Positions 7,763 through 31,976 of a DNA stretch of 64,000 nucleotides are shown here, piece after piece. Made by a program: the position numbers and the translations under genes. This DNA comes from Promethearchaeota archaeon (GTDB lineage: Archaea; Asgardarchaeota; Lokiarchaeia; Sigyniarchaeales; SOKP01), in the NCBI GenBank assembly GCA_013375475.1, contig JABXKD010000003.1, forward strand, positions 39,866 through 103,865, written 5' to 3'. The notes below the pieces were generated by a model. That model saw nothing but the letters and a program-made list of their open reading frames with translations, had not been told where the DNA came from and ran no database searches. The first letter of the stretch is position 1. Each line of letters starts with the position of its first letter.

Positions 7763-7978
7763 ATCTATTTTTATAAAGAATAATAATGATCTATTTTAAC
7801 TTTTAGCAATAGAAATTTTTAAGCGATTAATTAACGCCGATTATCCAAATTTTTAAACAAAAATTAAGGAGATAAAAAATAAAGAAATAAAAAGTATTAA
7901 TATTATATTTATAATATTTAAGAAAAGTAAAATCTCAAATTTCAATTTAACTAACTTGCTGTAGAAGGTGAATATGTA

Positions 7979-8383
7979 TTGGAATTCGGAACGGATCTAG
8001 GTATTGGCCCCGAAGAAATTGAAAAAATTAGCCCTCAAATTACATTTATCACTTCAAATGCAGATATTGAAGCTATCGCCCTTGTGAGTATGGAAGGCTA
8101 CCAAATCGCTTTTTCAGCATTACCCCAATACCAAGTTGATGGGGATCAGTTTTGTGGTCTTGCGAGCGCTCTTTTAATGACGGGAAGCTCCACAATTAAA
8201 ACCCTTTTTCAAGAAGACTTAAGCGAAATAATTGTGAGAGCTGAGAATGGTTACATTATCGTTAGCAACGCAGGGCGTTTAGTCATAGTTTGCGCGGGAA
8301 CCCTCATTGATACGTTAATGAAGACCGTTAAAGTTATGAGAGTTGCTGCTAAAAATTTGGCAAATATTTTTGAAAGGAAATAA
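7979..8383 (+). CDS. Roadblock/LC7 (MglB-like) domain protein
   Basis: IEAIALVSMEGYQIA...LSEIIVRAENGYIIV..AG pattern; AGGTGA SD before TTG. Confidence 0.9.
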   Translation: MEFGTDLGIGPEEIEKISPQITFITSNADIEAIALVSMEGYQIAFSALPQYQVDGDQFCGLASALLMTGSSTIKTLFQEDLSEIIVRAENGYIIVSNAGRLVIVCAGTLIDTLMKTVKVMRVAAKNLANIFERK

Positions 8384-8451
8384 CAAATAAAGTTTTAATC
8401 CAGAGGATTAACTTTATAAGTTTTTAATAATAATTATGTCACTATATATAA

Positions 8452-8603
8452 GCATGGTTTAATTCTATGGTTACTGAAAATTTTGATTTTTGTTGGCAGT
8501 GGCCTTGGCGTTCCTGAAAACGCTTTTCATTGGCTAAACCATACTTTGCACTCTTTTTATTTCTAAACATCGAATTTTAAATTTCAATTGCATCTGCAAT
8601 TGG
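8452..8603 (+). promoter_or_regulatory. Attenuator-like leader RNA of trpB2
   Basis: Hairpin GCGTT/AACGC over the leader stop extended by CAGTG/CATTG; ATGGTTTA/TAAACCAT long-range pairing; U-rich tract 8552-8564; further hairpin CAATTGCA/TGCAATTG. Confidence 0.55.
8467..8517 (+). CDS. Putative Trp-rich leader peptide MVTENFDFCWQWPWRS
   Basis: 16-codon ORF with three TGG codons (WQWPW) ending 168 nt upstream of a tryptophan synthase beta gene. Confidence 0.75.
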   Translation: MVTENFDFCWQWPWRS

Positions 8604-8685
8604 GCATTATTAATATTGGGTTCCAATTTTAAAATGAGACATCATATGAAGTAGATGATGAAATAATATAGAAAAGGAATAACAA

Positions 8686-10086
8686 ATGATAGATTATAAT
8701 AAAACAAGAATTTTATTAGATCCAAACGAAACTCCAAAGGATTGGGTTAATATCTTGCCAGATTTACCCGTTCCTATGACGCCCTTAATAAATCCCATGG
8801 ATGGAAAACCTGCTCCTCCTGAACTTGCATTCGCAATATTCCCAAAACAATGCGTGTTACAAGAAATTTCTCAAGAGCCTTTAATCCCCATTCCAAAAGA
8901 ATTAAGGGAGATTTTTGTGAGAACTTACCGCCCCACTCCTCTTCATAGAGCATATGGTTTAGAAAAGGAACTTGGAATAGAAGGAGAAGACATCAAAATA
9001 TTTTATAAAAATGAATCAGTTTCTCCAACGGGTTCACACAAGCCAAATACAGCTCTGGCTCAAGCCTATTACTCTAAAAAAGATGGTGTTAATGAATTGA
9101 TTACCGAAACTGGTGCCGGTCAATGGGGTTCAGCGTTGTCGTATGGTTGTAATATGTTTGATATAAAATGCACGGTCTATATGGTAAGAGCTAGTTTTTT
9201 GCAAAAACCCGGAAGAAAAATATTAATGAGAGCTTTTAACGCACAAGTTCACGCAAGTCCCTCAAAACTAACGGATTCTGGAAAAAGTTACTATGAAAAG
9301 GATCCAGAACACCCTGGAAGTCTAGGAATCGCTATATCTGAAGCAGTAGAGCATAGTATGAGAAGTGATAAAGCAAGGTATTCATTGGGTAGTGTTGTAA
9401 ACTTTGTCTTATTACATCAAACTGTGATCGGGCAAGAAGTTAAAGCTCAACTTAAAAAAATTAATATTGAACCTGATGTTTTAGTTGGATGCATGGGCGG
9501 AGGATCTAATCTAGGAGGATTAATGATTCCCTTCGCTAGAGATAAATTACATGGGATATCTCCTGATTTAGAAATTGTTGGGGTAGAACCAAGAGCCTGT
9601 CCAAGCGTTAACAAAGGAGATTATATATGGGATTACGGAGATTCTGCGAAAAAAGCCCCAATTTTAAAAATGTTTACTTTAGGACACAACTTTATCCCCA
9701 GTCCAATTCACGCAGGAGGCTTACGGTATCACGGAATGGCGCCAATAATATCAATATTAACTCGTAAAAAAATAATGTCGTCTGTTATGCATCATCAAAC
9801 TGAAGTTATTGAATCGGGATTAATGTTTGCTAAAACGGAAGGTATTCTTCCAGCACCTGAAGCGGCTCACGCCGTAAAAGAAGCGATTGATCAAGCCTTA
9901 AAAGCTAAAGAAAACAATGAAAAGAAAAACATAGTGTTCTGCCTAAGTGGACACGGATTTTTCGATTTATTAGCATATAAGGAATTCTTAGTAGGCAATT
10001 TAGTAGATTACGAACTACCGACCGAAGAAATTCAAAAAGCATTAGCTGCACCTGATATGCCCAATATCGACGAAACTAATTTTTAG
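8686..10086 (+). CDS. trpB2: Tryptophan synthase beta chain, TrpB2 type
   Basis: SPTGSHKPNTA PLP lysine, TETGAGQWG, GSLGIAISEA, HAGGLRYHG, LSGHG. Confidence 0.95.
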   Translation: MIDYNKTRILLDPNETPKDWVNILPDLPVPMTPLINPMDGKPAPPELAFAIFPKQCVLQEISQEPLIPIPKELREIFVRTYRPTPLHRAYGLEKELGIEGEDIKIFYKNESVSPTGSHKPNTALAQAYYSKKDGVNELITETGAGQWGSALSYGCNMFDIKCTVYMVRASFLQKPGRKILMRAFNAQVHASPSKLTDSGKSYYEKDPEHPGSLGIAISEAVEHSMRSDKARYSLGSVVNFVLLHQTVIGQEVKAQLKKINIEPDVLVGCMGGGSNLGGLMIPFARDKLHGISPDLEIVGVEPRACPSVNKGDYIWDYGDSAKKAPILKMFTLGHNFIPSPIHAGGLRYHGMAPIISILTRKKIMSSVMHHQTEVIESGLMFAKTEGILPAPEAAHAVKEAIDQALKAKENNEKKNIVFCLSGHGFFDLLAYKEFLVGNLVDYELPTEEIQKALAAPDMPNIDETNF

Positions 10087-10098
10087 AAAATTATATTA

Positions 10099-10120
10099 TT
10101 TTTTTTTTAATTTTTTTATT
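10099..10120 (+). terminator. Oligo-T terminator of trpB2
   Basis: Two long T runs right after the stop codon. Confidence 0.5.
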
Positions 10121-31447: not shown

Positions 31448-31561
31448 TTGAAGAAATTAAATAAATTTACAATAATCTTAGCTTTAATAGTAACCCTTTC
31501 TATATGGTTCCAATTTTCTGCCTCTGGTTTAGCATTTGGTGCTGGCGAAGGAAATCCGTAA
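31448..31561 (+). CDS. Small signal-peptide-like ORF MKKLNKFTIILALIVTLSIWFQFSASGLAFGAGEGNP
   Basis: TTG start after GGAAGTGA; basic n-region, hydrophobic h-region, small-residue c-region; GC-richer than flanks. Confidence 0.5.
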   Translation: MKKLNKFTIILALIVTLSIWFQFSASGLAFGAGEGNP

Positions 31562-31976
31562 TTAATGGCTACTAAAAAAGCTAAGTATATATTTAATTTT
31601 TTTTCTTAGTTTATTCAAATAGTTTAATTTGAAAATAAAAGTAGTTATTAGATTCTGGGGACAAAAATGAGTTCAAACTGAATATTTTAAAGATTTTATT
31701 GGACTCTCGATATAAATAAAAGTTCTCTATTATAAATACTATATTTTTCACTTAATGATAAATTACTTGAATTTCCAACAATTTGTTTTTTTTTTAGTGA
31801 TCAACGCAATGGAATTTTCCATGATTTCTTTACATTTTTGTCAAATTCATAAATACTAATTAATCTTTAGAGCAATTCTTCTCATATTTTTCATTTTTTC
31901 TGCAAACATTTAAAAAGGATACTCCTACTTTATGATAATTATAAAAAAATAATAAATAATCCAAGCATAAAAAAAG

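Follow-up and report, generated by a model that had tools for sequence, protein, structure and literature searches.

A conserved Trp-codon-rich leader open reading frame upstream of trpB2 in an Asgard archaeon: a candidate ribosome-mediated attenuator

Introduction

Ribosome-mediated attenuation is a textbook bacterial mechanism that needs coupled transcription and translation, and in the bacterial trp attenuator (trpL of Escherichia coli and its relatives; Rfam family Trp_leader) the layout of the leader includes two adjacent Trp codons. Here, we describe a short Trp-codon-rich open reading frame (ORF) that precedes trpB2, the gene for a stand-alone TrpB-like enzyme, in a 64 000-nucleotide (nt) stretch of DNA from a Promethearchaeota archaeon of the order Sigyniarchaeales (assembly GCA_013375475.1, contig JABXKD010000003.1, forward-strand positions 39 866–103 865; hereafter the window, from the first letter of which all coordinates are counted). 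Like trpL, the element comprises an ORF of about 15 codons in the apparent 5′ leader of genes for Trp biosynthesis, the Trp codons cluster towards its 3′ end with the stop a few codons further on, the codons and not the peptide are conserved, and the ORF is embedded in predicted RNA helices and followed by a U-rich tract. Unlike trpL, it is found in Archaea (Asgard), matches no Rfam family and has interleaved Trp codons (WxWxW, with 2–6 Trp codons in different copies); moreover, one helix encloses the whole ORF, no antiterminator of the 2:3 type was found, the target is an orphan trpB2 and the termination machinery would be archaeal (U tracts and the factor aCPSF1).

Three other kinds of system invite comparison. 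In archaea, TrpY of Methanothermobacter is a DNA-binding repressor of trp genes with operator boxes at the promoter; it shares with the system proposed here the Trp-responsive control of archaeal trp genes and differs from it in involving no ORF and no RNA structure. In eukaryotes, of which the Asgard archaea are the closest known relatives, amino-acid-responsive upstream ORFs (uORFs) are exemplified by the GCN4-type re-initiation system and by the arginine attenuator peptide. These resemble the system proposed here in that a long 5′ leader contains an ORF through which expression of an amino-acid gene is tuned; unlike in them, the sensing codons here would be those of the cognate amino acid. 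Scanning or re-initiation would not be needed for trpB2, since the gene has a Shine–Dalgarno-like site of its own. In mycobacteria, the available part of one report describes leaderless poly-Cys ORFs as short stalling ORFs without a classical terminator switch (bioRxiv 10.1101/834739), and the available part of another describes uORF-linked Rho termination in M. tuberculosis (PMC13675443). As far as these parts go, the mycobacterial ORFs are similar to the proposed system in that a single amino acid is sensed by a short codon-rich ORF and access of a factor to the nascent RNA depends on ribosome occupancy, and dissimilar in the domain of life, the factor (Rho versus aCPSF1/FttA) and the amino acid. 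The full-text literature that was searched, which covers few subscription journals and leaves an earlier description possible, contained no description of a Trp leader peptide or of a ribosome-mediated attenuator in archaea. That uORFs also operate in archaea is stated, as a general remark, in the introduction to the uORF4u paper, and the string 'attenuat' is absent from the main text of a 2026 cross-domain review of termination.

The leader ORF and its conservation upstream of trpB2

The leader ORF would encode MVTENFDFCWQWPWRS in 16 codons, with three Trp codons within five. It is located in a 302 nt gap between a Roadblock/LC7 gene (7979–8383) on the 5′ side and trpB2 on the 3′ side. The trpB2 product scores 630.8 bits against NF009057 (cut-off 366) versus 133.3 bits against the TrpB1 family TIGR00263 (cut-off 392) and, by these family scores, belongs to the TrpB2 class. 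The initial annotation had reported an ORF at 8467–8517 with this arrangement of Trp codons ahead of trpB2, which the sequence and the NF009057 match confirm. The coordinates of all of the features are collected in Table 1.

We searched 40 relatives and, with this genome counted, obtained a TrpB2 match in 36 of 41 genomes. Thirty trpB2 loci were compared, consisting of the present locus, 21 from the same genus and eight from three other families of the same order; the same-genus leaders, including the present one, constitute the 22 orthologues referred to below. Under a strict rule (WxW or WW, a stop within five codons and an ORF of at most 60 codons), a Trp-rich ORF precedes trpB2 on the gene strand in 25 of the 30 loci versus none of the 30 on the opposite strand. 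The same rule gives a background of 15 matches in 655 852 nt of non-coding-like DNA of this genome, or 0.011 per 480 nt. Each of the five loci missed by the rule carries a homologous variant ORF with two Trp codons; four of them form a subclade (L005–L008) in which the ORF is longer and the fifth (L012) has its stop seven codons after the last Trp codon. A search restricted to ATG starts recovered a short ORF with at least two Trp codons, at a similar distance upstream, in 27 of the 30 loci, and the ORFs of the remaining three start with GTG or TTG. The 30 loci are related by descent and do not represent 30 independent events; between families, the flanks have diverged beyond alignment, with the Trp codons, the frame and the stop retained. 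The leader ORF is real, and its occurrence is beyond chance.

In other families of the phylum, the element is sparse. TrpB2 loci sampled there satisfied the strict rule in 5 of 56 cases (4/30 and 1/26 in two samples), of which three look like true relatives (L072, and L085 and L086 from two further families) and two are doubtful; most other Asgard families sampled are without the leader element. Two side observations concern the distribution of the locus. In one species of the genus trpB2 occurs twice, the copies lying 15 kb from each other and each following a Trp-rich leader of its own (L099 and L100; G151:C50). In addition, two public records titled as bacterial metagenome-assembled genomes (WOR-3 and Nanopelagicaceae; L043 and L045) carry the locus at 88% protein identity and are probably mis-binned archaeal contigs.

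Putative signature of translation

The properties of the ORF were tabulated over 64 distinct family-level copies. An ORF with at least two Trp codons is present in 63 of these and one with at least three in 51; among the 63, there are two Trp codons in 12, three in 19, four in 23, five in seven and six in two. The length is 15–19 codons in 55 of the 63 and the stop lies one or two codons past the last Trp codon in 53. All three stops are used (TAA in 36, TAG in 15 and TGA in 12), mostly at the identical aligned codon position, and 59 copies begin with ATG. The Trp codons begin at codon 9 or 10 in most copies, approximately one ribosome footprint from the start. Residues ahead of the Trp block vary freely and the Trp residues alone are invariant, and insertions and deletions between clades preserve the reading frame. 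Since frame, length, Trp codons and stop position are kept while the N-termini vary and all three stops occur, the pattern points to selection on an ORF with Trp codons and a nearby stop, and not on a peptide or a fixed RNA word. Judged from these alignments, the module has the character expected of an attenuator, namely a short ORF enriched in cognate codons in which the codons are kept and the peptide is not.

Copies upstream of trpD and pathway context

In four genomes of other families, a Trp-rich short ORF was found 130–210 nt upstream of trpD, which in these genomes is the first gene of a canonical operon (TIGR01245, E < 1e-109). In an order-wide search, trpD was present in 22 of 91 genomes and had a Trp-rich ORF within 600 nt in 16 of the 22 loci, two loci having less than 300 nt of upstream sequence. 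A covariance model (R1), which was built on the 22 same-genus leaders and is family-specific, adds two loci with two Trp codons each (L132 and L136), bringing the module to 18 of the 22 trpD loci. R1 matches 80 of 111 family genomes with one to three copies each, and this genome once, at the present locus; all 19 further R1 copies carry a Trp-rich ORF. On 56 loci of other families R1 found nothing significant, though three of these carry a convincing Trp-rich ORF by eye. Four features of the trpB2 leader, namely the P1 arm, the Trp codons, P3 and P5 (see below), recur in the trpD leaders of this family. Ten proteins encoded downstream of leader copies were tested: four are TrpB2, three are TrpD, two are unnamed ORFs of about 90 amino acids ahead of a trpD-sized ORF and one is unrelated (L149). 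Conserved Trp-rich ORFs and covarying stems across Asgard genomes, the check that the initial annotation had suggested, were thus found for the trpB2 and trpD leaders of one order. Since it precedes both trpB2 and trpD, the module would belong to the 5′ leaders of cognate-pathway genes, its position in the transcript being deduced from a promoter-like box.

Three further observations were made on these copies. An ORF of approximately 85–90 amino acids lies between the leader and trpD in several genera (L132, L136, L140, L159 and L165), and the two examples tested have no Pfam or NCBIfam match. On the 3′ side of the L149 leader are a 71-amino-acid ORF, a CxxCxxCC-domain protein and a beta-keto acid cleavage enzyme. 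In L032 (G039:C20), a second Trp-containing short ORF, MQTRSENNTFHYQLDWTWRALRA, with a G+C-rich hairpin is located about 390 nt upstream of the trpD leader and may be a tandem leader.

The genome studied here (3.92 Mb, 32.5% G+C, 100% complete by marker genes) yielded no trpA, trpC, trpD or trpE, nor a TrpB1 above the cut-off, in family searches that were positive in all 14 control genomes, and trpD was found in none of the 27 other genomes of the genus. The gene trpB2 is therefore an orphan and the sole Trp-making step found. Presumably it serves indole salvage, a reading for which we take the TrpB2 reaction to be the conversion of indole to Trp, and from its gene content the genus looks like a Trp auxotroph able only to convert indole. 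A scan of this genome for other leader ORFs rich in a single amino acid (H, C, W, M, P, R, T or G) gave nothing else convincing. One further short ORF with three Trp codons (MVPIFCLWFSIWCWRRKSVINGY, 31505–31576, in a 1 kb gap) has its stop nine codons past the last Trp codon and no Trp gene downstream; it fails the strict rule and is probably a chance occurrence. The window contains no tRNA genes.

Predicted RNA structure of the leader

Six helices (P1–P6) were obtained from pair probabilities averaged over the 22 leaders, followed by pair counts for each named helix. P1 comprises 12 base pairs and encloses the ORF; 81–82% of its cells are paired, and both sides change in 6 of the 12 pairs among the 22 sequences and in 10 of the 12 among 45 distinct sequences. 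Its core consists of TAAACCAT (8535–8542) paired with ATGGTTTA (8454–8461), and one column pair alternates between AU (7), UA (6) and GC (5). P2 contains many U–G pairs, and both of its sides change in 4 of 8 pairs (22 sequences) or 6 of 8 (45 distinct). P3 is 91.7% paired over the 22 orthologues, with changes on both sides in 3 of 5 pairs, or 4 of 5 on the 45 distinct sequences. In the predicted fold the ORF lies wholly within a closed three-helix domain, with the presumed ribosome-binding region in the 5′ arm of P1, the Trp codons in P2 and the foot of P3, and the stop in the P3 loop. As a separate observation, a minimal ORF in which the initiation codon is followed by Val and a stop (ATGGTTTAA, 8454–8462) can be read in the P1 5′ arm; its conservation in relatives is partial.

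With P1 and P5 taken together in extended form, 84.4% of the cells are paired versus 33–46% with the partners slid, and 45 cells are changed on both sides versus 18.4 ± 3.2 in shuffled alignments, with none of 500 shuffles as high. On the 45 distinct sequences 81.9% are paired versus 32–43% slid, with changes on both sides in 20 of 25 pairs; this alignment is fitted to the covariance model and therefore leans towards structure. The first domain (P1–P2–P3, the first ∼100 nt) has a folding energy of −25.2 kcal/mol (z = −1.94). P5 also occurs in trpD leaders (L127 and L134) and in two trpB2 loci without the ORF (L095 and L096), and might function in protein binding or processing. In distant lineages (L025, L027–L030, L072 and L085/86) the stop is again situated in the loop or an arm of a hairpin with T runs after it; in L028–L030 the 5′ arm of the hairpin begins at the stop codon and a T run follows the 3′ arm, and in L085/86 the ORF lies within a long stem, and the trpB2 ribosome-binding site is preceded by a T7 run.

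The structural proposals of the initial annotation held in part. The hairpin drawn there as CAGTG..GCGTT/AACGC..CATTG retains its inner part, which is P3. The outer CAGTG/CATTG pairing is not supported: it is 74.5% paired and has a variable middle position without covariation (13 of 22 unpaired), and a competing helix, 8469–8476/8497–8504 (P2), does as well (75% paired, four pairs changed on both sides). A second proposal had TAAACCATA choosing between two upstream ATGGTT copies. Pairing with the more upstream copy stands, extends to P1 and covaries in 6 of its 12 pairs; pairing of TAAACCAT with the copy at the start codon (8467–8472) gives one covarying pair versus a shuffled mean of 1.0, with 11 of 22 sequences unpaired at one column, and is not supported. 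The U-rich tract described after the ORF is present. As regards Trp attenuation as a whole, the conservation and the covarying stems support a cis-acting, Trp-related leader ORF; the two-copy ATGGTT switch lacks support from covariation and no antiterminator was found.

Table 1
Features of the trpB2 leader and its surroundings
Feature	Position	Strand	Description
Promoter-like A/T box AACTTTATAAG	8410–8420	+	Most conserved block 5′ of the leader; columns 1–10 invariant or at least 90% conserved (22 orthologues)
P1 5′ arm	8450–8461	+	Pairs with 8535–8546; 6–17 nt 5′ of leader ORF start, where ribosome binding would be expected
Leader ORF	8467–8517	+	ATG 8467, TGA 8515–8517; Trp codons 8494–8496, 8500–8502 and 8506–8508
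P2 helix	8469–8476/8497–8504	+	Codons 1–4 with the region of the second Trp codon; 75% paired
P3 hairpin GCGTT/AACGC	8508–8512/8519–8523	+	From the last base of the last Trp codon; stop 8515–8517 in the loop
P1 3′ arm	8535–8546	+	18–31 nt after the stop codon
U-rich single-stranded spacer	8547–8584	+	Candidate premature-termination zone; T5 8554–8558, T3 8560–8562, T4 8575–8578
P4 hairpin, ATTGC/GCAAT core	8585–8602	+	83.6% paired; 2/5 pairs change on both sides
P5 long hairpin, invariant TTG...CAA core	8605–8618/8624–8636	+	84–94% paired; 6/11 pairs change on both sides
P6 hairpin	8640–8660	+	Just 5′ of the trpB2 ribosome-binding site; 72.6% paired, 2/5 pairs change on both sides; weakly supported
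Shine–Dalgarno-like AGGA, purine-rich	8675–8678	+	8–11 nt 5′ of the trpB2 ATG; outside pairing in predicted folds
trpB2, putative regulated gene	8686–10086	+	466 amino acids; stand-alone TrpB-like pyridoxal phosphate enzyme; NF009057, E = 9.8e-190

Predicted transcript start and candidate termination signals

Archaeal TATA boxes have a characteristic spacing to the transcript start, and this spacing was used to place the predicted start of the trpB2 leader at ∼8441–8446, some 25 nt 3′ of the A/T box. A search of Rfam, with Trp_leader and T-box included, over 7800–9000 on both strands (E up to 10) gave no match; the leftovers in this region are at chance level (CRISPR-DR39, E = 7.6; SOX2OT, E = 4.2).

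The spacer between P1 and P4 is 29–47 nt long in the 22 orthologues and contains 49% T and 30% A, with 35% T and 41% A in the rest of the leader. A run of at least four T is present in the spacer of 21 of the 22, at least two such runs in 16 and a run of at least five T in 16, and runs of four or more A average 0.23 per sequence. In the present leader a further T4 lies at 8524–8527, directly after P3. The genome encodes aCPSF1 (887 bits; cut-off 580). According to the available part of PMC8716108, archaeal termination signals are U tracts that do not require a hairpin, two U4 tracts are the most efficient in Methanococcus, aCPSF1 binds the tracts, and a Lokiarchaeota orthologue of aCPSF1 cooperates with U tracts likewise. 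The T-rich spacer after P1 in the orthologues fits the U-tract signals described there.

Proposed mechanism

On balance we consider it probable, with some reserve, that the leader senses Trp-tRNA through ribosome stalling and thereby governs read-through at the U tracts; the translation of the ORF, the stalling, the termination and the direction of the response are parts of this reading that we infer. The region from ∼8441 to 8685 would constitute the 5′ leader of the trpB2 mRNA and act as a cis sensor that reads charged tRNA-Trp by way of the ribosome. When Trp is plentiful, the ribosome would pass the three UGG codons and leave at the stop two codons on, the three-helix domain would fold and the polymerase would terminate in the U4/U5 tracts starting 8 nt beyond P1, either intrinsically or through the U-tract-binding factor aCPSF1. 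When Trp-tRNA is scarce, the ribosome would stall on UGG and hold P2 and P3 open some 30–40 nt behind the polymerase, which would lower termination and yield more full-length trpB2 mRNA. The geometry fits this scheme, with the 3′ arm of P1 expected to exit the polymerase as 8554–8562 is transcribed. The effect could be exerted by steric hindrance of P1 closure, by a second ribosome queued at the start site or by blocked access of a termination factor. In a more specific form, which we put forward tentatively and hold to be possible and not probable, the element is a true leader-peptide attenuator operating on termination of the archaeal/eukaryotic type, in which the stalled ribosome keeps aCPSF1/FttA (CPSF73-like) or P1 from acting at the U tracts and release at the stop codon permits termination.

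A number of results weigh against the proposal that the leader is a stalling sensor acting on termination. An antiterminator was sought by ensemble folding in the 22 orthologues, with a ribosome footprint masked on the Trp or stop codons, and no conserved alternative helix emerged; with the footprint of the stalled ribosome masked, P1 is still predicted, with a mean probability of 0.53. The switch is consequently not of the classical four-segment type, because masking neither abolishes P1 nor creates an antiterminator. Attenuators as a class also include members that act by simple occlusion, and the missing switch therefore lowers the case for a classical trpL type and not for an element that works like an attenuator. 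RNAalifold returned an empty consensus on the full MAFFT alignment and on five sub-windows, and for this reason the named helices were checked by pair counts. The whole leader folds no better than shuffled sequences (z = −1.37), and in 17 lineages folding of the 55 nt that follow the final Trp codon gave a mean z of −1.06, with 8 of the 17 below −1 (mononucleotide shuffles). T runs alone are weak evidence since they are common at the base composition of this genome.

Other such points come from the distribution of the element and from RNA. In the L005–L008 subclade and its duplicates there are two Trp codons and the ORF extends eight codons past the last of them. Five of 14 further trpB2 loci of the same family are without the ORF, and the leader element is therefore dispensable; one of the five retains a remnant of the 3′ half of the leader, and two loci that lost the ORF (L095 and L096) retain an upstream box like that at 8410–8420. 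The third leader copy in one genome (L149; G217:C17), with the Phe/Trp-rich ORF MKAINCLFSFWFFFWRF, has no evident Trp gene downstream. RNA was assessed from Logan assemblies of four metatranscriptome runs, out of 22 sequencing runs in all, over 8000–10100, the contigs of which carry no strand, end or level information. One library gave a read-sized contig of 151 nt spanning 8401–8551 with one difference, which starts 5′ of both the promoter-like box and the predicted transcript start and may represent read-through from the upstream gene or DNA carry-over; 8568–8709 is covered by no contig of the four runs.

Alternative explanations

The alternative that survives best shares the stalling of the ribosome on Trp-tRNA shortage and places the output after transcription: the mRNA would be shielded from 5′-to-3′ or endonucleolytic decay, or translation of trpB2 altered, as by a eukaryotic or Gram-positive stalling uORF, with no premature termination. 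The conservation of the ORF is accounted for equally well, as is the failure to find an antiterminator, and the structured P4–P6 spacer is conserved. However, AGGA and the trpB2 start are unpaired in the predicted folds, so that no structural gate on translation is visible, and the spacer after the ORF domain is specifically T-rich like archaeal terminators, with the T7 of L085/86 as an example. We regard this alternative as doubtful, although worth serious consideration. An action resembling that of a eukaryotic amino-acid-sensing uORF, which the initial annotation had also raised, is possible.

The Trp codons might instead form part of a TGG-(G/C)C(T)-TGG-C core recognized as a site on untranslated RNA or DNA, by a TRAP-like triplet reader, as a tRNA-Trp specifier or as a repressor operator, the ORF being incidental. 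Nucleotide conservation does exceed the needs of the amino-acid sequence: CCT or GCT usually separates one Trp codon from the next, 16 of 17 analysed leaders have C immediately 3′ of the final TGG and the triplets recur with a period of 6. This extra constraint around the TGG codons keeps a non-translational reading alive, with little probability. Such a site would not explain an in-frame start, a tight length and an in-frame stop of any type in 63 of the 64 copies, nor insertions and deletions that keep the frame, and the number of Trp codons varies from two to six with no relation to T-box or any other Rfam family. The U–G pairs in P1 and P2 further argue against DNA palindromes. We therefore judge it distinctly improbable.

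We give still less credence to the nascent peptide (W-x-W-P-W-R...) being an arrest peptide that senses free Trp near the stop, as does the leader of the bacterial tryptophanase operon, and that stalls at high Trp. It would agree with the stop one or two codons after the last Trp in 53 of the 63 ORFs and with the frequency of Pro or Arg beside Trp, but Trp alone is invariant, the residues between and after the Trp residues vary (Q, R, A, P, S, H, C and L), and target genes that act in biosynthesis or salvage would be expected to be induced when Trp is short.

Finally, it is very improbable that 8410–∼8560 constitutes a separate small gene or small RNA that ends at a terminator of its own, regulating in trans or not at all, and that trpB2 is transcribed from a separate proximal promoter: although the A/T-rich 8627–8636 can be read as a second TATA-like box ∼50 nt before trpB2 that is kept in two loci without the ORF, and although the available parts of PMC7968998 and PMC7298713 report a bacterial Trp attenuator RNA and peptide acting in trans, this stretch is the 3′ arm of the covarying P5, the ORF-less loci (L095 and L096) keep the upstream box, and the module lies directly upstream of a Trp gene on the same strand with the exception of L149; a second promoter was rejected as the principal explanation on the first two of these grounds.

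Biological implications

Should the stalling sensor be real, the ribosome would serve archaea as a sensor of amino-acid supply, and would do so in the closest lineage to eukaryotes, and the attenuator reading would make this the first translation-coupled amino-acid sensor in Archaea. It would also be an old sensor, common to the trpB2 and trpD operons across the order and present in at least two other Asgard families, and a possible intermediate between attenuation in bacteria and uORF-based control in eukaryotes. The leader would represent a compact cis element of ∼120 nt with mutable parts (the three TGG codons, the start codon, the P1 arms and the U tracts), which would make coupling, U-tract/aCPSF1 termination and uORF-type control testable in a tractable archaeon. 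For the organisms themselves, it would mark trpB2 as a Trp-regulated gene in the absence of the rest of the pathway, which is relevant to the debated role of TrpB2 (indole salvage) and to the way in which these archaea depend metabolically on partners.

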